A DNA stretch of 64,000 bases from Moniliella sp. 'wahieum'. Its lineage: Eukaryota. The position numbers and the translations under genes were made by a program. Positions 11,455 to 62,299 of the stretch are shown here, piece after piece. The notes under the pieces are model-generated. The model was not told where the DNA came from and made no database searches. It worked only from the letters and a program-made list of their open reading frames with translations. The stretch's first letter is position 1; each line of letters opens with the position of its first letter. Location: positions 62,001 through 126,000 of the forward strand of contig RSEE01000048.1 in assembly GCA_003971905.1 (NCBI GenBank), read 5' to 3'.

Positions 11455-11466
11455 TTATCATTATTA

Positions 11467-13415: not shown

Positions 13416-14594
13416 CTAGAAGACCACCGGGCCTGCGGCCCGGTCAGCTGGGGCCGAAGCCCCAGCTGTGCTGCGTCGCCACCTTAGCCACCGGTCCGCC
13501 CTTCGCCACCGTAGCCACCCTTCCCCCCATCGCCCCACCTTAGCCACCGGTCCACCGTCGCCATCGTAGCCTCCATTCCACGCTGGAGGAATTTTATCAC
13601 CCATGTGCATGGCTGAGCGCGCGGGGTGGGTTGCGGGGCTGCGTCACCGCGCACCGAACGCAAACAAATAGGTAAGCATGACGTAAAAGTAAAAAGGGGG
13701 GGTCTGCGATATAAAAGAGAGAGCACAGCAACCCGCTGAGCCACAACTGGCTCTCCGCCATTCCATCCGTCCCGTACCTCAAGCTCTCTGACCAGCAGGT
13801 CCAGGTTGGTCTCCAGCTCCGCACGCTGTGCCGCACCACGCGCAGCATGTGCAAGTGCGGCGTCATGTCCTCGCTGGAACACATCATGTCCTGCACCCGC
13901 ACCCAGGCCAGTTTGGTGCGTTGCATGAGGCAGTGCGGGAGCCCATTCTCCAGCTCCTCCGCTCCACCCCCGACACCCACGTCCACAACGAACCTATGGT
14001 GGAGGAAGAGGATGGACGAGGCGCGGACGGAAGGCACAGCGCACCGATTACCGTGTGATGGGCCCGGAGCACTGGGAGGAACCGGAATGGAGGTAGACCA
14101 CACGCTGCGCGACACGGGATCGCAGGAGGCGCAGAGCGCGTACCGGCGGGTGGTGCATGAGAGCACTGCGTCGCCTTTGGAACGCCGGGAGAAGGAACTG
14201 CTTCGGCTGCTTGAACAAGCAGAATGCGACAAAACGCAAGTACCAGGGACGCACTCAAGAGCCGTTTTTCCCCTGGTTCTGACGACGCGAGGATACTACG
14301 GCACCAAGACGGCGGGCAAGTTGTTTGCGCATTGGAAGGAGTTGGCTACTAAGTCTCAGTGGAAATGGTTCCTCGCTCGGATGTCAACCACGTTCCTCCG
14401 GTCCACACGCGCTTCCTAGGGTACGGGACCGGATGGCGAGAGCCGGAGGGTCCTGATATCCTGGCGATCCCCTGGTTCCTTGACCTTAGTGGCGCTTCCA
14501 AGTAACCCCCGCAAGATGAACGGTTTCGGTTAGACGTAGCGTTCCCCCTGTCCCAGCCTTAAGCTCTGTCAATGATATGAATTCAAAAGAGAGA
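13416..14594 (-). mobile_element. Non-autonomous Helitron, family 1 (copy E), with a retrotransposon inserted at its 5' end
   Basis: Minus-strand 3' end CCGGGCC-GCA-GGCCCGG-TGGTCTT-CTAG|T; 5' end A|TCTCTCTTTT; subterminal repeats at about 13470-13580. Confidence 0.8.
13723..14584 (+). mobile_element. 5'-truncated CRE-clade (Cnl1/MoTeR-like) non-LTR retrotransposon: CCHC finger, restriction-like endonuclease and 3' UTR
   Basis: Joining frames gives WLSAIPSVPYLKLSDQQVQVGLQLRTL..CKCGVMSSLEHIMSC..HEAVREPILQLL..VHNEP..RTDYRVMGP..MEVDHT..RKYQGRTQEPFFPLVLTTRG..LFAHW, stop at 14419. Flanked by a 10-bp direct repeat AAAAGAGAGA (13713-22, 14585-94). Confidence 0.85.
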
Positions 14595-15501
14595 TTGAAT
14601 ATTGGTCTTGAAGAGCTTGGTGTCGATGATATTCGTAGATGAAAATGATTCGATGATGCATGATGTAATGCATGATGTGACATGTCACTGTGACATGCGA
14701 ATACTCAGGCTCAGGCGCTCAGGCGCTCAGGCCTTCAGGTGTACTCGATCAGGTACCCTGTCAGTACTCAGTGTACTCAGTACTGACTCTGATATTGATA
14801 TCCAGTCTGAGATCTGACACGACACTGTGCATGACGCATGACGCATGACGAATGATGCATGATGATGATCGATGATCTAGCGTCTAACGTTTAACGTTTA
14901 TCCGATTCATCTCGATATATCGAACAGGATTGCGCTCAGCGATGGCTACAGTGCTCGATCCTCCCCTACGTGTGACATGTGAGCACCCATTGATCGATCA
15001 TCGATCATCGATCATGCATTATTTTTTGCGTCAATGTGTGACATGGGTAACTCTGTACTGAGACTCAATACTGATACTGAACTCAGTACACGGATGTACT
15101 CAGTGAGTACTTAACGTTCAACGTTAACGTTTAACCCTCCAAATACCTAGTACCTGAGATGACGGGGCACCTTTTGCCGTCTCTTCTCGAGACTGAAATG
15201 CAAAAACAGCTGGTATCTCTCCGTTGCTTTCAATAAGCTTCAAGCTCATCGAGTTGATCTTAAATCTTATTACGAGTCTTCCAGTTTCCTCCCTCCAATC
15301 TGCTATGTTACCCTACGGCTGAGATACCCGCGGATCGGAGGAGGATAATCGATAACCGCAAAAGCATAATGCCCCCCACGCCGAGGATCCAACGGAACAA
15401 TTGATGTTGGATGTTTTCCTGCGGGGCCGGCGATATCAGGCCAATACCAGCGGTGGAGCATCTCGCCATAATGAATCTCTCAGACCTCAACATATGTGGT
15501 A

Positions 15502-16585
15502 CGAGGAAGTGCTATCGGATGACACTCTTAGTGCCTTCGCAGCCTTCGCTTGCTTCTATTGGAGGGTAGTGCTGGGTTTCCCTGCACGGCCCTCGGTGGA
15601 TCGGTGACGCTCACTTAGCCAGGCGGAAGGTTCCGCTCGCAGGGGCTACGCCCTGCTCGCTTCATCTCCCTTCTCTCTCCTGTCTCCTTCCCTTCATTCA
15701 GATGTGCTTGAAGACTTGTGGCTCACCACTTTGCCTTCACGCCTTGTCTGAAGGCTGCTTTGCAGCTGACCCATAGGATCGCGAACGCTCCCAAGTCGCA
15801 CTCTATAACTTCGTCTAATTCGCTCTGTCAACATCTATGCCAGTGCGATGGGGCTTAGACAGAAGGGGGGGTTACCAAAAAGGGGCCAACCAACAGTCAG
15901 CATCCTCGATTAGTGGGGATCCTTTATCCCACCTTCCATTCTCGTCGTTTCCCGCCTTCCTCCAGCATTTTCATGTGCCCAATCGCGCGAGCCTTTTCCT
16001 TCAGCCGCGTCGGTTCCCCGTACCATAGCATGTCGCGTGGATTCCTTTCACAGCCACTGCCCTGCCTCAGCCCTGGCAGTGTCTGTCCGCTCCACTGCAT
16101 CTACCCGTCTCTTCAGCCCCGGAGGCTTCAGACACGTTACTACCCTTCAGCCGGCGTATACGCAGCTTGCACCGCGGCAGCCGCCTCGGCTTCACGTCCA
16201 AAGGCTTCTCCCCCTCGCTCGGATCCTCCAAGTAGCCCAAGCCCGAAACTACCGTGAGTCGTCCTTCACCTAAGGGATTGTCACAGGTCGTCGTAATCAC
16301 GTACATGGATCGAGCCCTCGACGGCAGTGGGGCACAACCGTGGGCGTGGATTGAAGGGGCACCGTGTGCCAGTGTGGTCGTTGGTGCGGCAATGGGGGCA
16401 CCGCGGTGAGCACGGGCAGGGGGCATTTTAAGGGATGGAGGGAGCGTCGACGCGAACTCTGTCATATGCCCGATGGTTGGCGCAGCCCCCTCCGTCACGT
16501 GCAGGTGGGGAGCAGTAGGGGTTCAGTCGGGGGGCAGTAGAGTTGTTGGCGGATTTCTTTGCTCCTGCCATATGGTAATAGAAGA
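15502..16585 (-). mobile_element. Helitron-like element, family 2 (copy C)
   Basis: Inverted homologue of 11467-12792 with A|TC 5' end and CTCG|T 3' end; retains the zinc-knuckle remnant at about 16320-16427. Confidence 0.65.
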
Positions 16586-16747
16586 TCCATCCACCATTGC
16601 ATGAGCATGACACTGATATGGATGCAGAAGTAGAGATCCCGGACACCCAGATTCTCACGACCCGCGGTGGAGGAAGCTCGATTTTCCCATGAAGAAAAGA
16701 TATGTGAAAAGTACACAGGACAAGCATAGCACAGGGAATATCCCCGT

Positions 16748-18563
16748 TCAATCAAGCTGAAGCACTCGTGCCAGGGCTGAGCTCAACGTCGAGCTCACTA
16801 GGATCATCTCTAGCGCGCCCATTAACCTGGATGATTCTTTGTTGGAGTCGAGATCGGAATCAATTTGTTCCAAATCCGTCCAAACGTCTCGTCAACCAAG
16901 GGCGACTGGCCCAGCATGCCGGAATACACATCAATGATCACGTCCAAGGTATCAGCCGACAAGTCAATGTAGGCAGGGGTCAACAGCGTGGCGCAAAAGG
17001 AACCGTAGTAAGGTTCAGTCCTACATCGTCCGGTCCATCACAGCAATCCGGAGGCTTCCGAGCTGCCCGTTTGGACTGTTGATACTGGACTGCGTGGATG
17101 AGCTCAAGGAGAAGCGCAAATGTCACTTCGGGTGCAACTCCTTGCGCAAGACAGCATCCAAGCGCCATGAAGTTGAACGACTTGAGATACTTGTCGTACG
17201 GTTTGAGACGAGCCGAGCGTGGTCGATCGGCACGTAAGTCGTCGTGAGCGGCCACACTACTGTCCAACACAGGAACATCTCCGTCAACGCGCTGCTTCGG
17301 GCTAGCTGGTGCTCCAAGCCTTCCCCAATAATGCCGCTCTCCATCTTGCCGTCGGACAACCTCGGAGGCCTTGAGATCCCGTTTTCGGATGCACATCGTT
17401 CCATCAACATACCCACAGCAAGTTTCCCTCGTCTGGGGCAAGAGCCATGCAAAGAATAGGCGCGGGTAGCGCATTGTGTGGGTCACACGGAAATCTTGGG
17501 CAGGGTCATAACCTTGACCAATTGGTCGAGACCCGCCCGTCAAGATCGCAAGCTTTGCGACCCTTCATCGGACGATCCTACCACGCGCTATCCATAGTGA
17601 TGGCCAAGCTGGTGATTGCCTTTTGATGATTGGACACAGCCTTGAGACAGCCCCCCCTCATCAGGTCCCATGCTCGCATACTGGCCGCCACACTGAGTGC
17701 CCCCTCCGCCACATCGGTAGATGGTAACATCGTTGACCGGGAGCGGTGTTCCATCCGCATCACCTCACCCCCATTCTCCTCTATGCGTGCGTCCCATAGC
17801 CTCACATACCATCATAGGATCCACTGAGAAGAAGAGAGGGGTTGTCGGGGCTAACGGCTGCATACGAACCTAGTCCGTGTGTCGATCGAAAACGCGAACA
17901 GCGCTTTGGTCAGCATGTCCCATAATCGCATTGTCTGGTCGTCCGAGCAGAAAGAACTTGAGTGGGATTCGAGGAAACTTTGTTACATGAACAGGACTAA
18001 GATGATCGGTTAGCAATCTGCTATATCCAAATATAGAGGAGACCAAGGACCGAGACGTTACTGTTTGTGACCCCGAAAGGTCCGTAAGATGGCGCGGGAG
18101 TTAACGTCAAACACCTGGATCAGGCCTGAATCATCACCAACAACCATCAGGCGCGACCATCAGAACGATGTGGCCGGAGCGGGCCACATCGGTAAAGCGA
18201 GAGACGGTCTTGACAACCTTGTCGGTGCGCGTCGAAAAAGTTGGACACGGGCCCAGCTGTGACTGCATAGCGTTGGGTGGCCTGAGATGACAGGGACCCA
18301 CTCTGCGCGCCGGGAACAGAGGCAACAGGGTTGGCCACCGCCCTCTCGCCAGTCAGAGCCTCTGGACCAGTGGTGGCGAAGGGGGAGGCGGGCACGTAGT
18401 GGATGCAGGTGATAGGTGCGTGCTCCTTAAGAAAGACAGGAGCACGGAAGCGGCGCCAGTACGCTGTCTCGCTAGAGACAGCACTTGCAACAGCCTTGGA
18501 CGCCTGCTTGGCAGTGATCGCCTTGGCTTGGACGTTGCCAATGTCGAGCTTGGCAAAGTCCAT
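16748..18563 (-). CDS. UTP15: U3 snoRNA-associated protein 15 (WD40 + UTP15 C-terminal domain), heavily frameshifted in this assembly
   Basis: ETAYWRRFRAPVFLKEHAPITCIH; VVKTVSRFTDVARSGHI; WDLMRGG.LKAVSNHQKAITSL; RLKPYDKYLKSF; VTFALLLELIH; IDVYSGMLGQSPLVDE..GALEMI. Confidence 0.88.
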
Positions 18564-18782
18564 CGCGGCAATTAATGGCGGCCTTGCCGGCGGTGGAGAA
18601 GGCCAAAATAGAGAGTACCACGATCCAGCTAGAAAAAATAGGTGCGGAATAAGGCGGAATACGAGCGCCCGACAACAACATCAGCCAAAACACGCTCGGC
18701 AGGCAGCAAGGCAGGGTGTCACCATCGGGGATATGTATCTTCTGTTGTGCCATCACCACCTGACCCTCCCTTCCATCTCATC

Positions 18783-19543
18783 ATGGCCCACGTTCTTGAA
18801 CCTCTGGACCAGGTCTCTCCGTGTAAGCTCCCCCCTCCCCTGGCCATACTTCAACACATGCGCCGCTGACCCTGTTTAGACCGCGATTCGCGGTCCAATG
18901 TCAGCATGGACGTATACTACGACCAGCTTGCCAAGACAGCGACGCTGTATATTGGCAATCTTTCGTTCTATACAACCGAGGAACAAATATACGAGCTGTT
19001 TAACCAGTGCTCTGCCCCAGGATTTGGTATCAAGCGTGTTATCATGGGGCTGGACCGCAACACCAAAACGCCTTGCGGATTTTGCTTTGTTGAGTACTAT
19101 AAGCACTCGGAGGCTGTCGCATGCATGCGCTACATTAGCGGCACCAAACTCGACGAACGCTTCATTCGATGTGATTTGGATTCTGGATACCGGGATGGCC
19201 GCCAGTATGGACGGGCCGCAGCGGAGGCCAAGTCCGGGATGAGTACCGTCAAGAGTACGATGCCGGCCGTGGTGGTTGGGGTCATGCGCGGATTCAAGAG
19301 GAAGAGGATCGGAGGCGGCGCGAAGAACAAATTCGTGCTGTGTATGGCGCTTCGACGATCGAGGGAATGCCCCACGCGGAAGGGGACCAGCAACGGGTTA
19401 TTCCATCCGGTGCAGAGGGGGAGTACTATGAGGACTATGCCCAGGCCCGTGGCCATGTCCCTGACTCGCACCTCAAACGCGATCGTAGTGATGAAGCGGA
19501 TGAGGATGAGGGTCATAAAATTCCAAGAATGGACGAAGAGTAA
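18783..19543 (+). CDS. CBC2: Nuclear cap-binding protein subunit 2 (CBP20)
   Basis: Exon 1 [13 protein letters not shown], intron 18823-18879 (GTAAGC..CTGAC..TAG), then [46 protein letters not shown]; frameshift near 19217. Confidence 0.95.
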
Positions 19544-19641
19544 GATTCGCATTTCATATCAAATTGCTTCAATCGTGCAAGGCATGGTCCGAGTTGGGTA
19601 AGTGATGATATATGTGGCAAGGGAGGCAGCAGAAGTAAACG

Positions 19642-21395
19642 TTAGAAAGGATTAGGCGAAGGAGTCATGGCGCGAGAAGGGGGTATGCTTGGGCGGGTGT
19701 ACTGGGCGGAATTCAAGCTCCCATTGATGGGAAACGAAGAAAAACGAGAGGAGAGGTCAACAGAGGTGGTGTGTGCAGTAGACAAGGTCGTGGTACGGTG
19801 GACTCTTGTATGCATAGGTGTCGCGGGTTCGCTGCGCTTGGCCTGACGGGTCTGATGGTCCGAACGCAACATGAAACAAAACGCGATCAAGACGCCGAGT
19901 CCACCGAGTCCGACAGCGAAGAAAAGAGCGTCATGGTATCCCTTAAGGATCATTTCATCCCCAAGGTTGCCAGTAGAAGTACTTTGGGCAATGGTTGTGG
20001 CCAAGCCTAGGCTCAGGGAACCAGTGTAGTTGATGACGGTGCAAACAAGGGAGGCTACGACCCCTTGCTGATCCGGACTAACAGAGTTGGAAAGCAGTAT
20101 GGTGGCGGAGGGCATTGACAGGTCCATCCCAAACGGCGCGACAATGACCGAAACCATGGTTAGTGCGAAGTAGGTTTGATGAAGGGGTGCGAGTGCTGAT
20201 AAGAGTGGTGCCACGGTAAACGCAATCATCGAGATGAGCATAGTCCTGGCAGGCCCAATCCGGGCAATAACCAGCCCATTGAGAGAGCTGCACATGCGCC
20301 GAAAATGGGACAGGGCAGAAATTGGAGAGCGGCAATGATTGGTGTTTGGTGACGAAGGAAGTAAATCTCCATTGACCATAGTACAACCACACGGTGAAAG
20401 CGGCCCACCCCCCCATTGCACCGAGCATGTAAGCAGTGGAGGAGTTCAACACTTCTTTTGCCAGCAGAGGATTTTCAGCCACTTTCAGCTCAAAGAAGAA
20501 AAACAGACCAATGAGAATCACACCGAGGAGGAGAAGGACGATGACCCATGCAACACCCCTCCGACCGTTGGGCCTTCGTTGAAAGCGACATTGATGAGAA
20601 TTAAGGCGGTGACACCCAAGGCTGATCCCCCCATATCGAGGATGCTCATAACATGCGACAGGCTCTTATTTACCTGGGGCCGAGTGAATGGGCGGGGTAG
20701 AGTCCAAGCTGATAAGCCCCAGAACAACACACCATATCCCATTGACCCACATGGCCCACGGCCACCAGACGTATTGAGACAATGCTGCCGAGCCAATTCC
20801 CCCAATCAGAGCGCCTGTCGGAGCAGACATGCCAAAGAGGGAAAACATGAGCGTCTTGCGTTTGCCTGGGGGATAATAGGCACCCAAAAGGGCCAAACCG
20901 TTGGGATAGAATGCAGGCCCGATCCCCGCCATGGTTCGAGAAATTACGAGCAACATGTAGCCCGAGTAAACTGAGAGGCCCGCAATGACCGACCAAATGG
21001 CAAACCAAATCCAACCGAAGAGGACCATGCGTCGATGACCAACTAACACGTCGCCCATCCTACCAGACACAAGGATGAGTGTACCACATGTAAGGGAGAA
21101 TCCCGCAATCAGCCAACTCGATTGGCCAGGGTTGAGATTGAACTCTTTGACCAGCAAGTCAAGTGGGGCCAGACATGACGACAGTCCTGCTTGGCACATG
21201 AACTGTGTTTGACAAACGCAAAAGACAAAGGTAACTTCTCGAAGCCCATGAACTTGTTCCAGAGTTGGGGCAGATGTGGAGTGGCCATTGGCGCAGTGGG
21301 CTGTTGGGCTCTGCTGTCCCCAAGTCCACATCTGACATGTCATATACCGAATTATCCTTGAACGAGGACTGGAGCAGTGAGGAAGTTGATCCCAT
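19642..21395 (-). CDS. MFS drug:H+ antiporter-like transporter (Atr1-like)
   Basis: SWLIAGFSLTCGTLILVSGRMGDV, ALLGAYYPPGKRK, APFGMDLSMPSATILLSNSV..QQGVVASLVCTVINY and many TM segments over several frameshifted ORFs. Start approximate. Confidence 0.88.
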
Positions 21396-22180
21396 CGGAG
21401 ACCATGCAAGTAAGGAGTTTGCGACCAGGGCGTCATGGGAAGAGCCAAATCATTTATCTTCGTTTCCTCAAGAACCTGCATCCCTTTTGCCATGGGGACA
21501 GGAGTAGCGTCGCATCGACCCAAGACGAGGTGGGGCCGGATGATGCGTGTGGCTCCCAGGCTTGGGGGGTTGGTCGTCAGCCATCGCGGTCGACGACGGC
21601 CAATTAACAAGAGAGAGAGTGGGAGAGGGGGGGGTAAAAAAACAGCGGTGGTGGACACGGCAACGAACGTTTGTGCGCGATCAAGATCCTGTAGGGAAAA
21701 TACAGGATCCACACTTGCTCGCGAATAAGACGCGCGGGCGGGGGGTGGTGATGATAGCACTGGGACAGTGCCAATCAAGCCAAAGTCGCCCGATTTGGGA
21801 GGGCTGCCTCCGAGCTCCCCCTGTCCAACCTCTGAGGTCTCAATACTCAATGCTCTCCAAGTTGAACGTTGAACTTCAGATAAACGCTAAATGTTCAATC
21901 CAACTACTCGATGGCAGCACATCTACCTGGGGGGCTCCGTAGGTTGCAACTATAGGGCGAAGATATATATTCGCTTCAAAGCAACGCATGTCGGACGTCT
22001 GTAGTGTGGCAATCGTCCTAGTTCCTTGGCGTACAGAAAGCAAAACTATAGTAGAGTGTAACGGTCTAGAGGCCAATTCAGTCGTCCATTCTTCGGCAGG
22101 CATCGAGGGCACGGAGAGAATAGACTAATATCTCTTGGGGAGATCAGAGGCGACTAGCCTCCCCTCGGGCGATGATTAAG

Positions 22181-25100
22181 TTAATGGCCAGCTGTTGATA
22201 ATGGGAGGCTGTCGTCAATGTCAGGACCAGTAAGCCCATGATCAGCAGCATCTTGATCAAACAACATTTGGCTTGTCTGCAAACAAACTTGCACTTCTTG
22301 CGCCATGGGCACCACCATGTCGTAGTGCTGAGCGAGCCTTACGAGCGTATCGTGGGCCATACGGACCTTGTCCCAAATATCGACGAGGACCGTCAAGCGA
22401 TCTTGCTGCGAGGGATGGGACAATGCATCGTTGGGCTGGGGTTGCAGCGCAGCGGATGCTTGGGCCGACTGGAGTAGGTCGTGTGTTGGGTTCGAGCTGG
22501 AGTTCGACATGAGATCGGCAATCAAATCATTGCTCACGCTCATGACTTGCATCAACAATGTGTACGAGATGAGCAAGGCACTGCATGATGGGAATGGGTT
22601 GGCCCTCAACTCGTCGTGAACCATGATCTCTAGTAAACGCTTTGACGCGTATACACACCGATCCAACGAGTATCGCGCATCAAACACCCCTGGCGATGAG
22701 CGCGGCTTGGTGTCCGCCTGCAACGCCGTAATATCCGTCCCGGAAGGCGGGGCGAAAGAGCCAGGGAACTGCAGTTGCCCGGTCTTTGGTCCAGTGTGGG
22801 CAAGCCAGCGACATGGAGTAACCATTCCCCGGCCGACGTCGTCGGCGCAGAAAAGTCCTGGGTCAGATCCATGTTGCTCGTAAGCCAGTCGGTATTGTCG
22901 CCTCCAGTTGGCAGGTTGGAGGCATGGCTTGACTGGTTCGGAAAGATGGCTGAATAGGCGTCAGGGATCGGTACAGGTGAAAGCGAATTCCCCCCTGTGG
23001 ACAGAGAACGGGAAATGCCAGGCCCCGAGGTACCACCCGTGGTGCCAGGCGATTTTGCGTTCTCGTCATTGACACAGCTAAGGAAGCACAACTTGCGCTC
23101 AAACAGGGAGGCTCCGTGGAATGCTGAGTACAGGTGGAGTGTAAGCCAGGCCGTGTACAGCTGAAGACCAGTGCCGAGTTGTTGGTATGCCACTAACCCC
23201 GCCTCGACCTGCGATAAGTCTGTCGGCCTGTGTGGCCAATCGGGCTGGAGCCAGGGGAGAGGTTGTTGTTCCAGTTGCTCAATTTGGCATGCCAAAGCTT
23301 TGTCAATCGCGACCATATTTTCGATGATTTGGCGGCGCGATGAGGGAGTGGCAGTGACGGTGTGCGTTGAACAACACTACCACTTTGGTTTGATGTCCCA
23401 ACATGCTGCTGGTCTGAGGAAGGCATCAAGGATGGGATCTGTGCCAAACCGGCGATGCGTGAGGCAGCTGCGAGGAGGTAGACTCCTCAGTCGAACCCAA
23501 AGACCAGGACGGGGAAAATATGTCAGGCGATTGCTGGGCCTCATCCATGTCAGTAGACTGCGACAAGGCCAGAACTCGGTCCTGAACCTGTAAAAGCGTT
23601 TGAAGGGTCAAAACATTGCCCACCCAAGCGTTGTGTTGGCCTGATCCCGACGGGAGGGCTGAGGTGACACGCGGATCATCGGCACGAATAGTCAAGAGTT
23701 TCCCGGTATTGTACGAGGCGTACATGAGGAGGGACCAAGTGACCCACCAGATGCGCTTGGACATCTCGAATAGACACTCAGACGAGAAGTGTTCCGTAAT
23801 GTCTCTCCCCACAGACGGAGACGTGCGGGCACCTAGCAGACTCTCAAACGCTTTTTGCGATGAGAGGCGGTGGAGGCCATGGGACATGGCCAATCCTAAG
23901 GCTTGGTCTGCCTTAAGCCGTGCCTTCACCGCTCGCCCAGAACCATATTCATAGATGGCCAACACAGCCAAGGCCTGCAACACTTCAAGAAGAGATCCCC
24001 AATCCGCCTTCTCCTCGATTGTCTCGAGCACTTCATCAATCGCATCTCCGGCCTGTCGGGCATAGTACGCTGCCGTTTGACGCCTGAGCTGGCGTGCCGG
24101 CGAGTTGAATGCATCGGGCCCTTCGGCTCAAGCTCAACCTTTTCATCCAGGAGGGGAAGAATGCACTCGAGCGCCAGCAAAAAGGCAGATCGATGAGACC
24201 CAAACAGCTCCACAAACGTTTCAATGTGCTCCGGTGGTAGTAGAACGGGGATGAAGGCATATAGTTTGAGATAAAAGTCGACCAACAGCTGCCGCGCCCG
24301 TGACTTGGGGTCTGGTACACTGGCGCCCACAGGAAGATCTTGAGTGTCCACCCCGGAAGAAGTTGGGTAGTGACTCAGGGGCGCCAGTGGAGCCGATTGC
24401 CATCCGTGTCCCACCAGATGTGGTAGTGGTCGAGTCAGGTGGAGCCGAAAAGGGGATCTCTTGCTTGACCTGGTCAGTCAACTGGGACACCACCTGGGCC
24501 GATAGCCCTCCCCCGCCAGTGGAGGCCGTAGGGTTCATTGGTTCACTGTCAAACGGCTGACCATTCAGCACCGTTGGCTGGGTAGTTGCACCCATGAGCC
24601 AGGAAAGAAACTGCTGTTGCTGTTGTAGCTCTGGTGCCGTTTGGGTGGCAGTGCTGGCGGTCGTGTCGAGAGTGGGCTGCGCCTGCCCACCATCCACGTT
24701 CATGCTACCCAATGCAACAGAAAGAAGTGAATTGTAGTCAGGTTGGTTCGGGTTGGCTTGGGGGGAAGCTGTGGCCAGAGGATTGGTGGCGGGAAAGGTA
24801 GCAGGGGGGTGTTGAGTTGAGATGCTGATGCGGAAGGATCTAACGCACTTCCTTGTCCCTGGCTCTGGACGTCCTGTGAGGCCAAGAGGGCGGACTGCAG
24901 GGCGTTAAGATCGTACGGGCTGAGGGTGCTCAGATCAACGGGCTGCTGGAATGAGCGCAGCTGTGGGACCAGCCCCGGAACACGGACACTGTGCGGGAGA
25001 TTGGAAAGACCCAGCAGATCGTTGAGATGGGACTGGACGGGGGGCTCCAAGTGCTTGCGCTTGATACCACGGCGAGAGGCCTTGTAGATGCACTCCTGGT

Positions 25101-51563: not shown

Positions 51564-52139
51564 GGTGGCGATGCGAGTGTGGTGGTGGGGCAGTGATCCG
51601 AGAGTGCCTTGAGCTCAGGCTGAGGCCAGGCCAGTTCCAAGCGCGACGCCAACGGAGCAACGTGGAGTCGGGGTGCTGCTTAGGTAACCTCGGGGGACAG
51701 TTGGCGACCGCTTCAAACAGGCGCGCAGCAAACCGCGAGCGAGGTTGGCGCAGCAGCGGAAATGCGCCATTCCGCCACTAGCTCCCCTGTTCATCGACGA
51801 GACGGCACACCCCCACCCAAATGGCCCAGCAGGAAAGGGTTTAGGCCCTGGGAGGCTAGAGCCACCATGCCCATCTGTGTCTCTCCCCCATAGCCGTGAG
51901 AGCAGCAACGAAGAACTAGGCCATGGTGTCGCCAGCTAGCCTGCGCCTTTGCGCACAGGGGCAAAGCCCTCAATTTTGCGCAAGTACAATAGCAGACGTT
52001 TGGTCAGTGGCGTGTGTTGAGGTGAAAATGGACGGTCTCATAAAGTGGTTATATCGACAAAAACACTGAACACATCTATGACGAGATGCCCTTCGGCCTG
52101 TACATGTCGCCTCAATGGAATCGACAAACGCAAGCAATA

Positions 52140-52788
52140 TCAAAACGGGTCTTCCACAGCTGATGGGGTAATTGACAATGAAAAGGGAGGTAGCGTCTTT
52201 AGCACTACACAGGTAGAAAAGAGGAGCGAAAGAAGAAGGCGACGGCCGGGAGAAAAGGCGTCACGTGCCACTAGGCAGAAGAGATTATCTTGAGAATATG
52301 GTGGAATAATATGAGTGTCCGTCATACCACGTGTTCATGAAAGAGGTTAGATCCCGTGTCCCCAAAGGGCGGTCCTCCCATTTCACTTTTTTTTTCGAGA
52401 CAAAAGTGGAGAAGAGAATTGGGGGGGAACAGGCCAGAAGGAAGGCTGAAGTGCTAGATCACGTTACTCAGAAGAGTGAAAAATGCTGAGCACACGATCG
52501 CAGTGATCGCACATGAAAAATGTCCTCCTTTGTGGGACCGTGTCTCTGCTTTTCGAGATGCACCGAGGGAGCGGGGCCTGGTGCCATCCCACCATCGGGG
52601 GGATAGTAACCCTGTGGAGGATAGCCTCCCTGAAATACCTGAGGAGCCCCAGGAGGTGGAGCCGAGTATCCCTGAGGGGGATAGGCACCGTAATCAGGTG
52701 CGGGCGCACCGGCTTGGACCGGTCCATGAAGCTCGTTTTTGTTCCCGTACGAGGGAGGAGGCTCAGAAGGTGGAGGATACGTTGCCAT
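52140..52788 (-). CDS. Small Pro/Tyr/Gly-rich protein (possibly CYSTM-type tail-anchored)
   Basis: MATYPPPSEPPPSY..YPPQGY repeats in exon 1; downstream exons uncertain. Confidence 0.5.
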
Positions 52789-55700
52789 TTTCCGACAGCC
52801 AGAAAAGAAAGACGGAAGGACTTGAGGCGCGATGTTTGCACGCAGGTTGGCAGTAGTGCTTCGATGCGTCTACTACCACCGACGATATCGTTGTGGCGGT
52901 AGCTACAGTGTTTTTGTGGTCGCGGGTGCTGCACAGCGCAGGAACGTTGGTAGCGGGAGAGGTGACGATCAAAACAGGATGTGCGCGTAGGTGGCGATGT
53001 TATCAAGAGGGCTTGTCAGCTGATTACGCCACGACGGTCGCGGTTCGAAAATAACGCCAAAACATACAACACAGGCGATACCCCGCTACCTACCTATATG
53101 CCTGTTGCACCGTGGCTGCTGTGAGTGGGGCACTGCCCTAGTTAGAGGTTAGACTGGGCTGCGCGGCGCTCCACCTTGGTAAGCCCTTGCGTAGTAGACA
53201 CCGCTTGGCGCATTCCTCTGTTCTACTTACCCCCCACTTTCGCTCAACCCGTCACCTCGTCCTCGCCATCTGCTTCTGGTAGCTCAGACCGCGCCGACTG
53301 CCTGACGTATAGTGCGTCGCTTACACCCCTCTTACTCCATGCCATTGGAGCATGATGCATGATGCATGACCGCGAAAGCGATAATAGCCCTCCTAATAGA
53401 GATTCAAATGTTAATAACATGCGTCATGTATGCGCCCCCTCTCCTCCCCTCCCCAAGCCTTCTGAGGTCTCGGGGTAGCGTTGTGTAGAGTTAGGACTCA
53501 GTTAAGATGCCCCTACTACTATTGGGTTGGGTCATGACTGTAGTAACTGTTGGAGTTGGGATTCTTCCATGATTCTTCCATCGTTTTTTATAAAAGTCCG
53601 GCCACACACCTTTACAGTACAGTGTACTGACCTGGCCGAACAAAACGGACACGACAACGCCCGCACGAGGCTGATTTGAGGCGATCAACTCTCATGCGTT
53701 GATTGGCAGTTTCCGGTGCGACCTGACCGCAGGCCCCTAGCTGAACTAGTGATGATCTCGAATATAACTGGCTTGTCTAATTTCTCTCCTCACCATCTTG
53801 TCATATACGAATGGTTATACATCACGATCTCATGGGAAGGTATCGGGAGGGCGTGTGGTAGAGTTCTTTTGATGAAGACTTAGTTCTCTCTGCCCCCCTC
53901 TCAATAATGCGGGGGAGCGATCGCTTGTGGAGATGAGTTGATTTACGCTGCGCCAGTTCTCCAAAGGCGCTAGCATCGTTGAGATGCAGTTGAACCTCGT
54001 CATACGGCCTCAACGCACTCTCGCCTCCATCATACTGTGGGACCCGGCGTATTGTACGGATGCATAGTCGAGCTCATGGGATCTGCAACGAGGGAAAAGG
54101 ATGATGTATATCTGAGAGGTTCAGCCCGTTCAGCAACCACGCTCTCCCTACTCTGACGTTCGCCAATCTGACACTTCTTCACAACCGGACGCCGCCGCGT
54201 GCCATCAGATCCATGCAAAAAACTGTCTTAATGGTTTCGCCCCGTGCATCTCCTTTCACTGGAACCGTGGTGTTCCGGGGGCGGTACAGTTTTCTCGGTG
54301 TATATAGAGCCCCGCATTGCGTATGCCTCTGATCGAAATACACTTCACACTACTACTGTTAAGCTAGTGGGGGAGAATCAGTGGGTGATTTGAATCCATT
54401 CTGCGCGAATCCTTTGCGGACGGCCATCACATGGTATAGCACGGGAACACTGCGATCCATTTTGTATACAGGACCCAACAGTCTTGATGGAGACCTCTTA
54501 GTCTGCTGTGAAAACAGCCTGTGGGCAGCAGTATAAAATGCTCCTACCTCCTGTTGGTATATACCTTTCTTGATCTCTTCAGGACGATATATATACGCAG
54601 CCCTCTCTAAGGATTGTTCTGGTTATAGTCTTGGTCGCGCACCCTGTGTTTCCTACCGACCGACAAAAGCTTGTCCAACATCAGTCAGTGACACGTCCAC
54701 CTTCTTCCTTTGATCGCCCTCTCTTCGAATTCTTCACTCTCTCTCACTCACATGAATCGAAAATTAGCCGTCTGTTATTATACACTTCAGACCGTCGACA
54801 CCTGAAGTAGCAGCACTTATCGCCTTTTTCAATTACATGAGCAGCTCCCCCACAGTACGACTATTACAGCGGCAATCATGGTAACAGTATGGCCATTATG
54901 GACTCCTTCAAGGAGCCGTGGCCAACGTACACGTTGGTCCGTTTTCGTAGGCCATGAGGTGCTGCTGCGCAGACACAGACCCCAAACTAATAATATAGAA
55001 GGTGTCTTTTCCTCCGTCAGGCTCTATGCACTCGCTCGGCTTTTCGGGTGGGATCTGAAGCAAAAGGTATACTGTGCGTGACTCCGATTGGCCGTCCAAG
55101 ACTTTATATATACCCCCGGCCTAAACTGTAGGATAACGTCTCCCGTCTCCGTCCCCGCCCCTTTTTTTTTGGGGGGGGGAGGGCAGTGATAACCCCACCA
55201 CCGTGGGTTGCCTTTTACAACTGATGGGACATCATTGATAGCATCCCTCTCCAGCAAACCCAATGTTCGATGAGGTCGATGAGGCGGTCCTTCCTTCACC
55301 CCTTTCTGCTCTTCCATTTTGCAGAGCGTTGAGGGTCAACTTTTTGGAGAATCGAATCTGTGGGCTGCGGGGTAGTTGGACGCCGGTGACGCCAGTGACT
55401 GTATACCGCTTTTGGCGGCGCCATCACCTGCATCACCATCACCAAAGTTAGAAAACGGAGACGAACGTGCAACACCATTAGCTGTGATGAGACCTTGGAT
55501 CGGAACAGGCCGGCATATAAGAAAGTATGAACAGATGTTGCCCCCATTGCGGCACCTCATCAGCTCCAGTCTTGTATTACTCGCGTTGAATCAGGTCCGG
55601 GACGCTCCAGCAAGTCTAAGATCTAAAATGGTCCAACCTCGAGGCACCTGCCACATGTTCTCTTTAACGATCTGGCTTTGAGGGTTAGGGGAAATATACT

Positions 55701-55815
55701 AGTACAGCGAGCAGATAGATCGATGGTGGAGGGTAGGCGATGCGGGCTTCTGGTGATACATGGGACACGTGTTATGAGTAGTTCTCCACAGGGGATTGCC
55801 ATCGGCCTTAATCCT

Positions 55816-56070
55816 AGAGTACGACTCGGGAGCACTCGACGATCCTATATGGATCAGCTACAAGGAAGCTTTCAGACAAGGCGTCAATACAAATTGGTGA
55901 GCCACCAGTCTTCAAGCAACGTCTGAAGGAAGTGGCACGTGACAGGAGGGACGGGAGATGATCGATGAAGCGAGGATCAGGGGGTGCGCGCGGAACTCTT
56001 CCGCCAGGCTAGGCGAGCGTCACCGATCAACTGAGGGCCGTGGTGCAGGGGGACCCTAGCACACTACCCT
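55816..56070 (+). mobile_element. Degenerate internal fragment of the family-2 element
   Basis: Aligns by eye to the reverse complement of about 15560-15805 (TTCAGACAAGGCGT..GGTGAGCCAC.AGTCTTCAAGCA; GAGCGTCACCGATC..GAGGGCCGTG). Confidence 0.75.
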
Positions 56071-56312
56071 GTATCACTTAGGCCTTCGGAGAAATATTCG
56101 CTCCCACAGATTTCGAGCGACTGGAATCCCATGGAGGATGAAGTGGAAACCACATCATCAAAGACGGTTTTTAACAAACCACCACAACGATCGGTGTTCG
56201 TTTGCGATGTCGGCGTCTAAAAGAGGGCGTCCAACGTCCAACTCCAACGTCCAACGCACAACGTTTTCTCAGATGTCAGATGCCAGATGCCAGAGATAGT
56301 CAACGTCTCCAC

Positions 56313-56363
56313 GATGTCAGCGTCTCAAAGATGTCAGCGTCTCAAAGATGTCAGCGTCTCAAC
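56313..56363. repeat. 17-bp tandem repeat GATGTCAGCGTCTCAAA x3
   Basis: Units at 56313, 56330 and 56347, plus a degenerate unit upstream. Confidence 0.9.
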
Positions 56364-57390
56364 GATCTCAACGTGTGTCCAACTGAGGTGCATTTGACAG
56401 GTGCCAGGAGAAGCTATTTTTTACTGCGCGTGTGTTTTGATTAAGGGTCCTGTGGAGGAAAAAGAGTCCTGCCGCAGCGCAGCGCGCTTGGGTGGTTGCG
56501 TGGCATGGGCGGAGTGCGTTGGGTGCCGGGGAAGCAATGCGCGCTCCGATGTGCTGACCGCACGGCAGAACCACTCGAACCCCTTTTTAAGGGCCTACTA
56601 TATAAGGCCTAAGACCTAAGGCCTTTTACTTGATTACGGGTCTACTATGCGCGCAATGCACAATGGATAGCCGGCTGCGGGTGGGGTGGGTGGGTGTTGG
56701 CCACTGGTACACTGCCGGATGTGCTTGGGGCCCGAGCCGGACGAAGCGACTGGTGACTGGTGACCGGTGACCGGTGAGTACAAGTAGATTGAGTTGAATT
56801 CGGACATCTGGGTGGGAACTTTTGGGCTCAGCCTCGCGCTGAGGCAGCGCTGCGCCACAGTGCCGACGAGTGTGCCAGGGCAGTGCCCGGCAGTGCCTCG
56901 CACTGGCTCGGCGCAACAGCAGAGGCGCTGCTGCGCTCTGCGGCGCCCCTGTCCCTGCGTCAGGCACTTGGCAGCGGCAGCAGCCAGCGCTGCGTATGGT
57001 GCGTATGGCGCGTATGCCTGCGGTGCTTTGGTGTGCGCCGCCCGCCTCCTTTTCTCAGAACGGGGTTCTGCGTTCTGCCAGGCGAGCATCCCATGTGGTG
57101 CAGCCGTCGCACCCACCACGGAGTACTGATGCATGACGCGCCTGCATCCGGCCGCTGTGCACTCCCAAGGCCAACGCCTCGGCAGCGCTAAGATCCCCGA
57201 TCTAAGATCCTAAGCCCTAACCGCCGGTACCCGGAAGCGCTCCCACCGTGTCACCGGCATCACCGCATCACCGGCGGTGCTGTGCATCCCGCAGCATTGA
57301 TTCTGCCCGCCGGGAATTGGCCATCGTCCCCCTCCCCTCCCCCTCCTCCTCTCCCTCCCCCCCTCCTTCTCCTCTGCCGCTGGTCTGGAC

Positions 57391-59878
57391 ATGTCCACCG
57401 ATGCAGGCGCCGCACCCGCCCACCCGGCCCAGCCGCTCCTTCGCTCCTTCCCTTTCTCCCCGCGCAACGTCGCCACCGCCGCATCTGCTCTAGGCCGCGC
57501 CTCGGCAGGCGCAGCGCACGAACCGACTCTAGCATTTTCGACTGGCCCGGCGCCTGCGCACTCCTCCCGACGCCTGCCAGCCCTAGCATCGGTCGGGAGG
57601 TCCTCCTTCCAGTCTGCGCCGCAACCGGTCGTCGGCATCTGGCCAGAGCAGCCGGTGCGCATCCAGTCTTCTTTCTCGTCGTACGATCGAATCAACGACC
57701 ATGTCAAGTAACAGTGCTAGTGCCTATGCTGATGAAGGACTGGCTGACAGCGACTACGCGGGTTGGTCCAACACGACCCCAGTCTCTCCGCCGACTCTGC
57801 CTCCAGCCACCTATGTGGAGGATGAGCCGAGAAGTACGGCCGACGCAGCTCCGGAACATTGACCAGCAATCAAGGGGACACGCATTCCTGCACCGGCTTG
57901 CCACTGGACACTCGTTCAGCTCAGACCCCGACCCCACCCCCGGGGGGCCCACTAGAGCACGTCCCAGATGCACCCCACTGTCGGGCATAGGATGGAAAAG
58001 TACTCAGCAGCTTGCGCCGCGTGCCTCATCTAGGCTTGCTGACATGTGCACTCGTCCCCGTCACCCTCCGTCCGTGCAAGTACCTAGTCGCAGGCCACCG
58101 CTGAATCCCCTCACTATCTTCACTCAGTCAATGCTCAGGATGATTTGGCGCACGTTACCACCCATTTGAGCGCATGCGGAGCCGGATGTGAAGCACCCAT
58201 GCTCCAAGCACAACTGGTTGCGTTACACTACAAACACGCACAAATGGCGCGTGCGTTTGCCGAGAGGGGAGCTGCAATCGCCCTGCTCAAGGGAGCTGGC
58301 TGAAGCCAAGGCCCACTTAGGTGCGGCTGAGGCTAGCGCCAAGACCTATGCGGACATTGCGAAGGATGCTTACATGGTATGTGCCATCCAAGTCTTGGGT
58401 TGGGAAGCAGCGACTGACCCCGTTCCATTATGTTAGGCTGGATATGACGAGTTGGCTCAACAACATTCCAGCTCGCTAGCTCCCCTGCCCTCTCAACCCC
58501 AATATCACTCTCAACCTGAGGCAAAAGCCGATTTCGCACGGCCGCCTTCTCCCTCACTGCGTGGCCAGTTACAGCCACTCACACCCCCCGAGGAACCCAA
58601 ACATGGTGGATTCGGTCCAGTACGACAGCACCGTTGATGCGAGCTCGCCTAGATCGCTTCATTCAACATGAGGATCAGCCTCGTTCTGTCACCGCTCCTC
58701 ATGTCCCCTCGAAACGAATTGGCAGCCTACTAACATTGAGCCAACGCACCGTGCTTCCGTCCTGTCATACACCTCACTGTATCCTGAAAGGGCGGGGGCA
58801 TCGGCTCATTGGGCGAAGGGCACCTTGTCCAGCGCAACAATGATGATCGATCATTGTCTCCCAGCCCGCGCGACAGTCACAAGAGACGGTCTCTGATCCC
58901 TCCGAAGCCACCTCGTCCAGCTGAGCTCCCATTGGGTTCATCCCCCTTCGATCAAGCTCTACTCGCTCTTGATGAGGTTGCAACACTTCCTGGGTCCGTG
59001 GGATCTCATGCTCAACGTTCCGTTCCATCCTCTCTTCGCTGGGATGGGTCTGGACCACAATCCCACCTTGGGCTCGAGACCGGAGAATCTCCCTTGGAAC
59101 CGCAAAATTTATCTCCTTCTTGCGTGTCCACTGGGACTGCGACACGCCCTGTTCCCGGTGAAGCGCAGGGATTCGCTATGCCTGCATCGTCCGGACGTAG
59201 CACCAGACGAGGCAGTCGCCATACCACCATTCCTTCCCTTGGTGGAGTCCGGCCGGCAAGTGCGCATACTTCCACCACGGGTGGGTACCACTCCATCCCT
59301 ACCCGCACCATGGACTTGTTTGCTCCCAGTCCGCTCTTTCCAGCCAAGCCAAGCACATCACCGTTAGAACCCCTCCATTTCGCCCTCCTCGCCCTTACAG
59401 GGTGAGGTTTTATCGTATGGAGAAGCCGAAGGACCAAAGGAGGGCAGTTCTATGCATTTACCTCGCGGCGGCGGCCAGCCTGAGTTATACGCGATGTGCC
59501 TCCCAGCCCGGAGCAGCTAAAGCGCGAGACCGCCGCTGCACTTCGTTCCAGCCCAGACATTGAGGAGGAGGACAGATCCCCTAACCAAGGCCCTCTCCTT
59601 TGTCTACAGGCCAAGGCGGCGTTGCAGTGCATCGCGACCTGTACCAGCGTCTTGCTGCAGAGCTTTCATGGGCGGACCTGGAACATTTTGAGGTGCTTGT
59701 ACACGGGTTTGACCATGCTCTTCTTCCTCTGGAGGTGCCCACGGCCTCTTGGCGCGAGTCCGCCAACTTTTTGGGCCCTCCACCTGCCGGAGGGACTGTA
59801 GCCGCACCTCAAAAGTACGCACTCCGACTAGCGCTGGCTACCCAATTCGAGGCAGCCTGCCGCAGTGTGCAGGTGTGA
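57391..59878 (+). CDS. Hypothetical protein with coiled-coil segment and S/P-rich linker
   Basis: Run of plus-strand protein-like ORFs (MSTDAGAAPA.., ELAEAKAHLGAAEASAKTYADIAKDAY, YQRLAAELSWADLEHFEVLV) with probable introns; no family recognised. Confidence 0.5.
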
Positions 59879-60372
59879 ATCTCCCCCTCAAGAATCAGCC
59901 TACTACCGCCTAGCTTTCTTGTATATATACCAACATTATCGCCTCGGCCAATCACTTTTGATCAACGCTCTGTCTACCACGACCGTATATGACTTTCGCG
60001 CTGTGCGCTGTTCATCCCCCGCCTGCACTTATCTACTCTCTCCCTATATCCTGCGCTTGATACCATTTCCCAAGACTCTTTCGATGGCAAGCTCCCAAGT
60101 GTTAATGCTCTTCTTCCAAACTTTTGCGCGACGAGGAATCTTTCACCTCCCTTGGAAATCGCCTTATCCCCTAGTCCTTTCACTACCCAAGGGCAGGCAC
60201 TACTATTCTGCTTGTTATTTCTTTACACCTTCGTGTATACACTTCCAGATACCATAAGCATGCAATGACATGGATGGCTTCGCATCACAATGATCAGTGC
60301 TATACAAGTTGGGAGGGCAGAGTCAAGCCCCCGACTTCGTCCCATATTCTTCTTGTGCTCATTTTGGCGCCT

Positions 60373-61390
60373 TCACTTGCCCTGGTATCGAGGCAATCGC
60401 TTTTCTTTGAAGGCACGCAAACCTTCGATCCGATCTTCTGTCGAGAGAAGCGGCTCATATTCCGCCTCCCAAGCCAAGGCTTGCTCCAAGCTGCGCTCGC
60501 GTCCATACAATATGGACCGTTTTGCCGCACGGACAGCGATGGGTGCATTGGAGGCCATTTCGGATGCGAGCTGGAGAGCAGCTTGGTAGGCAGGTTTTTT
60601 CCTGTGTCAGCATCCTCTCCCGTGGTCGGAGACGCCAATACGTCCAGAATGCCACGAGCGTGGGCCTGCTCGGCCGTCAAGGTCCGTGCTGCGAGGATGA
60701 GAGTAAGGAGGTACCGACGGAGGTGATGCGGGGCAGACGGGCGGTGCCCCCAGCCCCTGGGATAATGCCACGGGCCGTTTCGGGAAGACCAAGGGGGGAT
60801 GCCAATCCCGATCCCACCCCATCCCCCGCCGCCAACTTTTCCAAGCCTCCCCCCAGCGCGGCCCCATCCAGCGCAGCAATGACAGGGACCTCGAGGTGCG
60901 ATAGACCCGTGATAACGGCGCGCAAATCGTGAAGGAACGCTTGCGTTTCCTCGGGTGTCATGCCCGCCCGCTCCTTGAGATCGGCACCGGCACAAAATGC
61001 GCCTCCCTTACCTGCCAACACGAGCACCCTTGCTTTTCTGGACATCAGAAGTGGTTTTAACTTTTTAGCTCCAAAACGCGCAACGAGTTGTCCAATGGGA
61101 TAGAGACGGCACTTACTTGTCCTTCTTGACTTGGGCCAAGCTGGCGGTCAACTCGTCGAGCATCTGACGCGAGATGGCGTTCTTAGCCCGGGGACGGTTG
61201 AGGCTTAGAAGGCGAATGCCCGTGTCACTCTCTTCGGATGCCAACCGGGCGCCTTGGGGCATGTCGTCCGGTAGTAAATGTGTCAAGGTTGCATGGGGTT
61301 CAGACGAGGGCGCATGGTGAAACAACGCACCGTGTTGACCATGGCCGGGGCAGCGCGGCCTGGGCGGAGCAGGGCAAGAAGAGCGGGCAT
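60373..61390 (-). CDS. AUH: Mitochondrial methylglutaconyl-CoA hydratase (crotonase family)
   Basis: LSLNRPRAKNAIS; AFCAGADLKER; PVIAALDGAALGGGLE; GLPET..IIPGAGGTARLPR; TEDRIEGLRAFKEKRLPRYQGK; Arg-rich presequence; intron about 61049-61116. Confidence 0.88.
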
Positions 61391-61699
61391 GCTGGGGTTG
61401 GTGGTGTTGATGGAAAGCATCCGGCGAAGAAGATGCGGTATAAAGGTTCGCCCTGGTGGCCACCACGTACTTTGTAGCGCGGTTGGGGTAAACGTCTTTC
61501 GTACATGAAGCGGCATCCGGTAGCAACCGATTCCGGTCGTAACCATGCCATCACGTGAACACGTAACGCGCAACCCCACAACTGCGGGGAACCTTGTGAT
61601 CTCAAATATTGAAACCTGACGTCCGCCTTAGCCGTCTCCTGCGCTATCGAGGTTGTTATAGCCCCTTCCAGAAGAAGATGGTGCCAATAGTGTTTCCCA

Positions 61700-62299
61700 C
61701 TAGAAGACCACCGGGCCTACGGCCCGGTCAGCTGGGGCTTCGCCCCAGCTTGGTGTGCTTGGTGCTGCGTCGCCACCTTAGCCACCGTTCCACACGGTCC
61801 ACCTTAGCTACCGTTCCACCGGTCCACCTTCGCCACCGTAGCCACCGTTCCCCTTCGCCACCGTAGTCACCGTTCCACGCTGGAGAGGCGAATTTTATCA
61901 CCCATATGCATCGGCCTGGCTGCGGCTGCCTGGAACGTACCAGGTGGCATGCTGATGTACAATTTTACGCAGCGGGGGAAGAAAAACCGTTCCAGTTTTA
62001 TAACTACGGCACCAAGACAGCGGGCAAGTTTTTGCGCATTGGAAGGAGTTGGCTACCAAGTCTCAGTGGAAATGGTTCCTCGCTCGGATGTCAACCACGT
62101 TCATCCGTGTCCACACGCGCTTCCTAGGGTACGGGACCGTGGCGAGAGCCGGAGGTCCTGATATCCTGGCGATCCCCCTGGTTCCTTGACCTTAGTGCGC
62201 TTCCAAGTAACCCCACAAGATGAACGGTTCGGTTTAGACGTAGCGTTCCCCCTGTCCCAGGATTAAGCTCTGTCAATGATATGAATTCAAGAAGGGAGA
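61700..62299 (-). mobile_element. Non-autonomous Helitron, family 1 (copy F), with a retrotransposon inserted at its 5' end
   Basis: 3' CCGGGCC-GTA-GGCCCGG-TGGTCTT-CTAG|T; subterminal repeats; 5' A|TCTCCCTTCTT. Confidence 0.8.
62003..62288 (+). mobile_element. Severely 5'-truncated copy of the same CRE-clade retrotransposon
   Basis: Near-identical to about 14295-14584 (ORF end plus 3' UTR, ending GATATGAATTC). Confidence 0.85.

Follow-up and report, generated by a model that had tools for sequence, protein, structure and literature searches.

We analysed a 64,000-nucleotide stretch of Moniliella sp. 'wahieum' DNA (contig RSEE01000048.1, positions 62,001 to 126,000; the whole stretch is called the window below), in which two fragments of a retrotransposon that lacks long terminal repeats (non-LTR) lie inside the 5' ends of two small Helitrons, matching each other in position and orientation. 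A search of the window for the paired-hairpin motif of the Helitron 3' end gave four loci, named C, D, E and F; E and F carry the retrotransposon inserts, and C and D were used as uninterrupted comparators. A first-pass annotation had placed both retrotransposon copies antisense inside Helitron 5' ends, and direct reading together with alignments confirmed this, with the inserts on the plus strand and the hosts on the minus strand. The features are given below; the coding remnant is that of a protein with a CCHC zinc knuckle and a restriction-like endonuclease (RLE) domain, UTR stands for untranslated region, TSD for target-site duplication, and P0001 is the closest database protein.

13416-14594, minus strand: composite E; TC follows flanking A (14594/14595), CTAG at 13416-13419 is followed by T; shares its 3' part with C, D and F by homology
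61700-62299, minus strand: composite F; TC follows flanking A (62299/62300), CTAG at 61700-61703 is followed by T
13723-14584, plus strand: retrotransposon fragment in E, 862 bp; 5'-truncated C-terminal CCHC/RLE coding remnant and 3' UTR, 3' end ...GAATTC
62002-62288, plus strand: retrotransposon fragment in F, 287 bp; same ...GAATTC 3' end; 94% identical to 14295-14584 of E; tblastn to P0001, E = 1e-18
13713-13722, no strand: inner TSD copy of E; AAAAGAGAGA on the plus strand, TCTCTCTTTT on the Helitron strand; exact 10/10; abuts the 5' limit of the insert
14585-14594, no strand: outer TSD copy of E, the first 10 nt of Helitron E; E-F homology ends here and the flanks beyond are unrelated
62289-62299, minus strand: first 11 nt of Helitron F, TCTCCCTTCTT, which the insert cuts off from the remainder of F; 9/11 columns match the first 10 nt of E
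13416-13468, minus strand: 3' terminus of E; hairpins at 13445-13468 and 13426-13444, then GGTCTTCTAG
11114-11462, plus strand: element C, Helitron-like, uninterrupted; 5' end TCTCTAGGTA-ATAAAATAGG; 3' part homologous to D, E and F
12795-13283, plus strand: element D, Helitron-like, uninterrupted; 5' end TCTCTATACC-ATACAG; degenerate tRNA-like insert inside
5' ends compared (^, insertion point): C, TCTCTAGGTA-ATAAAA; D, TCTCTATACC-ATACAG; E, TCTCTCTTTT^ATATCG; F, TCTCCCTTCTT^ATAAAA

Small Helitrons and the insert junctions

Canonical Helitrons are defined by a 5'-TC, a 3'-CTRR, a hairpin of 16-20 nt about 10-12 nt before the 3' end, insertion between A and T, and the lack of a TSD and of terminal inverted repeats (PMC4289320; this and the other papers cited by identifier are used here in excerpt). 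Hosts E and F have the termini and the hairpin of this definition. Their flanks would fit insertion between A and T, with A on the 5' side, T on the 3' side and no flanking duplication, and in both the second hairpin is 19 nt long, with an 8-bp stem and a 3-nt loop, and ends 10 nt before the terminal G of CTAG. When the 3' ends were folded as single-stranded DNA, all four gave z = -4.3 to -6.0, and in each case none of 200 shuffles was as good; the values were -23.9 kcal/mol and z = -6.0 for E (0/200) and z = -4.85 for F (0/200), whose hairpins lie at 61730-61750 and 61710-61728. The four elements share about 200-250 bp of 3' sequence, which consists of a degenerate minisatellite followed by the two hairpins, and their 5' 60-130 bp are largely unrelated, with the exception of F and C: homology between these two begins at about nt 36 of C (score 42 vs 13.6 +/- 2.3 for shuffled sequence, reached by 0/500 shuffles). 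All four 5' ends fit TCTC-N6-7-ATA. The 5' boundary of D is independently backed, because the homology between two copies of a repeat, X1 (11614-12794) and X2 (16519-15500), breaks at 12794, which is the A preceding the TC of D. No Rep or helicase domain was found among the 15 long window open reading frames (ORFs) scanned, and a RepHel gene is absent from the window, so all four elements are non-autonomous.

The 3' ends of C and D read ...CTCG followed by an identical 8 nt, TTATCATT (11448-11462 and 13269-13283), and the flanks of E and F beyond CTAG both read TGGG-N6-TATTGG (13400-13415 and 61684-61699). This similarity beyond the 3' ends means either that the elements reach slightly further or that they have a common target preference. 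D also contains an extra segment of about 140 bp that is not present in C, E or F. Within it, 13103-13173 on the minus strand matched the Rfam tRNA family with 21.8 bits (gathering score 29, E = 0.18), and ARAGORN called no tRNA; the segment could hold a captured or inserted tRNA pseudogene.

The inserts measured 862 bp in E and 287 bp in F, in agreement with the approximate sizes of 860 and 290 bp annotated before. They were identical in 285 of 304 alignment columns (94%, with 9 gap columns), and many of the differences were single-base length changes in short runs, so some of them may be assembly errors. DNA self-comparison and tblastn with 22 related proteins found no retroelement stretch in the window other than these two. 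The E insert has a 234-codon frame at 13715-14419; relative to P0001 it shows six frame changes between 13775 and 14475, a count to be read cautiously because indel errors in the assembly are possible. Both inserts are dead fragments. Alignment to P0001 indicated that the original ORF likely stopped at 14503-14505, which means that the 3' UTR would be about 79 nt long, and the earlier assignment of 14420-14584 (165 nt) to the 3' UTR was not upheld. RNA folding of the last approximately 150 nt of the two inserts showed no excess structure (z = +1.1 and +1.15).

On the minus strand, E reads ...CAA | TCTCTCTTTT, antisense insert, TCTCTCTTTT-ATATCGC..., two hairpins and ...TCTTCTAG | T. Direct reading showed that the 10 bp are repeated exactly at both limits of the insert and that the neighbouring bases differ, and the 5' limit of the insert is fixed independently by protein homology to the relatives, which begins at 13721. 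The 10-bp repeat is a target-site duplication. F reads ...GTA | TCTCCCTTCTT, antisense insert, ATAAAACTGG..., hairpins and ...TCTTCTAG | T, and its insert has no flanking direct repeat longer than 5 nt and no TSD. The 5' junction of F is ambiguous by 2-3 nt owing to an ATA microhomology, and the E junction has a microhomology of 2 nt (GA). The first-pass annotation held that removal of the inserts restores the Helitron 5' ends. The junctions of F and E agree with this, except that in E one copy of the 10-bp TSD, which had gone unmentioned, must be removed as well. Without its insert F reads TCTCCCTTCTT-ATAAAACTGG, with ATAAAA starting at nt 12, compared with nt 11 in the intact C. The composites were also said to keep both TC and CTAG termini, and these were read directly at both.

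Identity of the retrotransposon

At a threshold of E <= 1e-3, a phmmer comparison of the window ORF with 1.84 billion representative proteins gave 22 matches, headed by P0001 (279 aa, E = 7.6e-76), and the matched part of the relatives was always their C-terminal approximately 230 residues. A domain scan covered 13 of the 22 matches. The reverse transcriptase (RT) family RVT_1 lay upstream of the matched part and passed the cut-off in P0007, P0019 and P0020, was below it in P0004, and the other nine scanned proteins had no family; an apurinic/apyrimidinic (AP) endonuclease (Exo_endo_phos) was found in none of the 13. Both window copies are truncated downstream of the RT, and Pfam assigned no family to the window ORF.

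When the window ORF was aligned with 17 of the matches, the residues C, C, H and C were invariant and RHE, EP, RTD, D and K-x2-KY were near-invariant, which gives the family consensus C-x2-C-x7-H-x3-C ... RHE ... EP ... RTD ... D-x-T ... K-x2-KY. The published pattern for the restriction-enzyme-like endonuclease (REL) is C-X1-3-C-X7-8-H-X3-4-C-X9-10-RHD/N ... E ... R/KPD ... D/E (PMC12857005). The spacing of the knuckle fits this pattern, with RHE (LHE in P0001 and in the window copy) in place of RHD/N and RTD in place of R/KPD.

Predicted structure pointed in the same direction. P0001 was modelled with AlphaFold from an alignment of 13 sequences (mean pLDDT 81, pTM 0.79), and the seven best fold matches of this model in the Protein Data Bank (PDB) were all R2 proteins (best E = 4.4e-6, TMq 0.60). 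The weaker matches that followed were PD-(D/E)XK nucleases, namely restriction enzymes, Cas4-type and cap-snatching nucleases and RecU. A profile of the C-terminal domain searched against PDB sequences gave a chance match only (E = 8.1), with no R2 match at the sequence level. For the full-length relative P0020, the solved structure closest to its RT was also R2 (E = 2.2e-7). Thus, the CCHC and RLE motifs, the RT-bearing relatives and the predicted fold support the view that the inserts are fragments of an RLE-bearing non-LTR retrotransposon, and that the coding remnant is the C-terminal zinc-knuckle and RLE domain of an element of the R2/Cnl1 type. The first-pass annotation had called the element an RLE retrotransposon, and the motifs, the RT-bearing relatives without AP endonuclease and the R2 fold matches all speak for it.

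Among the proteins related to P0020 are RT proteins from Cryptococcus neoformans, Kwoniella, Filobasidium, Tilletia and Wallemia. Over its full length P0001 could be aligned with the C-terminal domains of two proteins, one from C. neoformans (E = 2e-14) and one from Tilletia caries (E = 3e-18), with 24-27% identity to them. A search for longer proteins related to P0001 gave no match, and the ESM Atlas returned generic RVT_1 clusters only. Cnl1 is named as the non-LTR element of C. neoformans (10.1101/2021.08.11.455996, PMC12810828), and the matched C. neoformans RT proteins are presumably Cnl1. On protein similarity, the retroelement is placed in a basidiomycete group near Cnl1. Membership of the CRE clade would be a reasonable but tentative assignment, with an indirect link through the similarity to the Cryptococcus and Tilletia RT proteins and through published trees that unite Cnl1 with MoTeR, SLACS and CRE (PMC12857005, PMC12810828).

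Insertion events and a possible site preference

[quoted passage not shown] Alignment confirmed what had been annotated from the letters, that the inserts share their 3' end and differ in 5' truncation (862 bp vs 287 bp) and that the host 5' halves differ: after the junction, E and F scored 18 against each other, compared with 14.4 +/- 2.2 for shuffled sequence, and are unrelated. The Helitron 3' parts of E and F are identical at 170/219 positions (78%), compared with 94% for the inserts. Since the truncations, the TSDs (10 bp vs none) and the host 5' halves all differ, and since the inserts are far less diverged than their hosts, separate TPRT events are the most likely explanation, as the first-pass annotation had argued against a single capture. 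The place of ATAAAA in the restored F, which corresponds to its offset in the intact C, also counts for independence. We therefore consider it likely that E and F record two independent insertions.

As a full account we lean, by a modest degree, towards two separate TPRT events of one Cnl1-like RLE non-LTR family at the 5' ends of two non-autonomous Helitrons. Judged from the junctions, the RLE would have nicked the Helitron sense strand after nt 10 in E and after nt 11 in F, just 5' of the conserved ATA, and the freed 3'-OH (...CTTTT-3' in E, ...TTCTT-3' in F) would have primed cDNA synthesis from the 3' end of the RNA. Such priming would account for the antisense orientation of the insert in the Helitron. 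Reverse transcription would then have aborted early, which left 862 bp in E and 287 bp in F, and the far end of the cDNA would have been joined at a microhomology of 2-3 nt. The junctions further suggest that the second-strand cut lay at a distance of 10 bp in E, producing the 10-bp TSD, and of about 0 bp in F. A motif near A-TCTCYCTT(Y)TT^ATA may be what the element prefers through its endonuclease and DNA-binding parts, and the subset of Helitron 5' termini that carry this motif in this genome would offer a recurrent, multicopy and harmless landing site. Endonuclease-independent priming from a Helitron Rep nick was also considered. A Rep of the HUH type nicks at the A|T boundary and leaves the 3'-OH on the flank, and this candidate was rejected since the 3'-OH would then lie there and not at nt 10/11.

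Both retrotransposon copies of the window (2/2) lie in Helitron 5' ends, occupying 2 of the 4 present, with their position (nt 10/11, before ATA) and orientation in common. An oriented random hit on nt 10-11 of any of the four 5' ends has a probability of 8/128,000 per event, which means about (8/128,000) squared for both. If only TT^ATA were required, the window offers 43 TTATA sites on both strands (about 45 oriented sites, including the split site of F), and the probability that both events fall on these two sites is about 1e-3. The two targets share the motif A-TCTCYCTT(Y)TT^ATA, and the unoccupied C and D differ from it at nt 5-10. Five other oriented CTT(Y)TT/TTYTT-ATA sites, outside Helitrons, are all empty, a split (probability 1 in 21) that speaks for specificity. 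An identical nucleotide position and orientation in two Helitrons points to a targeted insertion site, which two cases cannot prove, and a sequence-directed nick as in other RLE elements would be the simplest reading. The occupancy of two out of four 5' ends would make it plausible that the family as a whole prefers such Helitron ends. That a Cnl1-like RLE lineage of long interspersed nuclear elements (LINEs) uses the Helitron 5' terminus as a dedicated landing site, with the nick between nt 10/11 and ATA, is a tentative proposal to which we give less than an even chance. Composites that retain both Helitron termini might, if mobilised, carry the retrotransposon fragments onward.

Several points weigh against targeted insertion as described here. 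Only two insertion events are visible, in a single 64-kb window. The motif used to define the five empty sites was chosen post hoc, after the data. Two chance cases of exact 11-nt direct repeats occur in the same 1 kb as the TSD of E, so the TSD is persuasive only through its position. The ATAAAA shared by F and C lacks significance when aligned locally without constraint (614/2000 shuffles reach its score), and it is therefore telling only by its matching offset. The TSD of E is exactly the first 10 nt of the Helitron, which places the second-strand cut on the boundary between Helitron and flank, a coincidence that the model leaves unexplained. The terminal 10-11 nt (9/11 columns matching) show a divergence no higher than that of the inserts, so they could be a joint inheritance with the insert and not a target selected twice. 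CNL1 is reported to land at look-alikes of its telomeric target, and its insertions outside telomeres have TSDs that resemble the telomere seed (PMC12810828); by analogy, the Helitron ends could be look-alikes of a different primary target.

Such a look-alike target is an unlikely explanation that nevertheless deserves weight. The main site would be another sequence with a polypyrimidine-ATA motif, such as a microsatellite-like tract, a small-RNA gene or a subtelomeric repeat, and the Helitron ends would be off-target hits. [quoted passage not shown] In addition, the intact Helitron ends C and D have no CTTYTT stretch and are unoccupied, so it is the motif that the two targets share and not the Helitron end as such. 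Against an off-target origin, two of four Helitron 5' ends occupied in 64 kb is a high number for rare events, and the orientation and cut position are unlike those of Utopia in U2. The 64-kb window also holds no telomere-type repeat, no Rfam family at gathering score in a scan of its whole length and no U2-like 16-mer within 3 mismatches. U2 snRNA as the true target, searched for with a 16-mer made from the PMC4640811 motifs, was accordingly retained as no more than a weak lead, and an association with telomeres was rejected for the lack of such repeats in the window.

It is quite improbable that there was a single event, in which one ancestral composite 5' end spread by rolling circle and F arose from an E-like composite by deletion or by recombination with another Helitron. 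Helitrons are known to form chimeras. The terminal 10-11 nt and the 287-bp retrotransposon segment do form one continuous homologous block (94%, with 9/11 terminal matches), and both composites have retained their TC and CTAG ends. A single event would, however, require that the recombination junction fell by accident right before the conserved ATA (nt 11/12) of a different Helitron, which is the position hit in E. The TSD of E shows that an E-type end was the target, and what follows this end has no relation to the corresponding sequence of F; the host bodies (78%) have also diverged much further than the inserts. Helitron chimeras that involve other transposable elements (TEs) are described as rare (PMC4289320).

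A coincidence born of a loose preference for AT-rich TT^A sites is very improbable. AT-rich Helitron starts would be among the few such patches in a genome of 56% GC, and indeed both nicks read TT^ATA in a GC-rich window (50-62% in 2-kb bins), but with 43 TTATA sites available both events fell on Helitron ends in the same orientation (about 1e-3, as calculated above). Finally, we give hardly any credence to the idea that the purine-rich 10-11 nt after GAATTC are the element's own 3' tail and the 'Helitron 5' ends' illusory: the block is purine-rich and alike in both copies, but the same 10 nt also stand at the other limit of the E insert beside Helitron sequence, as a TSD predicts, and no single mechanism yields both an E insert just outside an intact Helitron and an F insert replacing exactly 10-11 nt.

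Known site-specific elements and the genomic surroundings

Cnl1 (also written CNL1) is among the closest known systems, a basidiomycete RLE-type non-LTR element like that of the window; the C. neoformans proteins that match P0001 at E = 2e-14 are presumably its products. Its 5'-truncated inserts are reported to range from 180 bp to 3.5 kb, the TSDs to measure 0-13 bp and the target to look sequence-directed (PMC12810828), and the lengths of the E and F inserts and their TSDs (10 bp and none) agree with these reports. CNL1 is described in subtelomeric arrays beside telomere repeats (10.1101/2021.08.11.455996, PMC12810828), whereas the site here is a Helitron 5' end without a telomere repeat. 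R2, whose proteins were the best fold matches of the C-terminal domain, likewise starts TPRT at a nick of fixed position and has precise 3' and variable 5' junctions. Its target is 28S ribosomal DNA, unlike the Helitron ends found here. In the spliced-leader gene, the cut made by SLACS, CRE and CZAR lies within a short conserved sequence, a few nucleotides from its edge. Together with CRE1/2, SLACS and CZAR of trypanosomatids, MoTeR of Magnaporthe and FoTeR of Fusarium are site-specific elements with a single large ORF that encodes RT and a C-terminal CCHC/REL region, and published trees place them with Cnl1 (PMC12857005). The window family has LHE/RHE and RTD, compared with RHD/N and R/KPD in the MoTeR/CRE group (PMC12857005). 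The targets of that group are telomere repeats or spliced-leader genes, and here they are Helitron ends.

Several LINEs that target transposons or short repeats use an AP endonuclease and not an RLE. Tx1L targets Tx1D, and Kibi and Koshi target TC/TTC repeats. Among the known targets of site-specific non-LTR elements, 'transposons' and 'microsatellites' are named in PMC4640811, so a transposon as a safe multicopy target is a known strategy; the same source describes Utopia and Keno as LINEs that target U2. Judged by titles and the openings of abstracts, no paper came to light in which Helitron ends are the target of a LINE.

Site-specific RLE LINEs (R2, CRE/SLACS, NeSL/Utopia, MoTeR and Cnl1) are the main models of how retroelements address DNA, and gene-insertion tools are being developed from them. 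If the preference seen here held genome-wide, RLE LINEs would gain a new type of address in the Helitron terminus, the specificity of the Cnl1/MoTeR group would be seen to shift away from telomeres, and there would be a natural case in which one class of transposon colonises another at its functional end, perhaps with loss of function of the latter or with a free ride on it. The retrotransposon would then be a site-specific parasite of a rolling-circle DNA transposon. If only these two copies exist, they are an ordinary pair of nested dead TE fragments.

By its sequence, the window is assigned to basidiomycete nuclear DNA. Its long ORFs contain Zn(2)Cys(6), Velvet, MFS, CBM_21 and synaptojanin-type domains (Pfam), and the basidiomycete origin of the host follows from the synaptojanin exon, whose best named relative is that of Tilletiaria anomala (52% identity), with other basidiomycetes next. 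The CBM_21 and MFS genes (7111-8810 and 19642-21886) are broken across overlapping frames; these split genes and the one-base indels of E and F could reflect introns or residual indel errors of the assembly.

Elements C and D are arranged head to tail on the plus strand, with X1 between them. The repeat family X forms an inverted pair, 11614-12794 on the plus strand and 15500-16519 on the minus strand (75-85% identity), that brackets the cluster of D and E, and a partial third copy lies at 55815-56070. X1 contains a short ORF with two CCHC-type knuckles (11697-11918). Directly 3' of C, a unit of about 104 bp is tandemly duplicated at 11463-11675 with 95% identity. The flanks of the Helitron cluster, 10800-10950 and 14640-15100, are rich in palindromes and in short repeats of the ATGATGCATGA/GTGACATGT type, and the cluster may be nested within another repetitive element.

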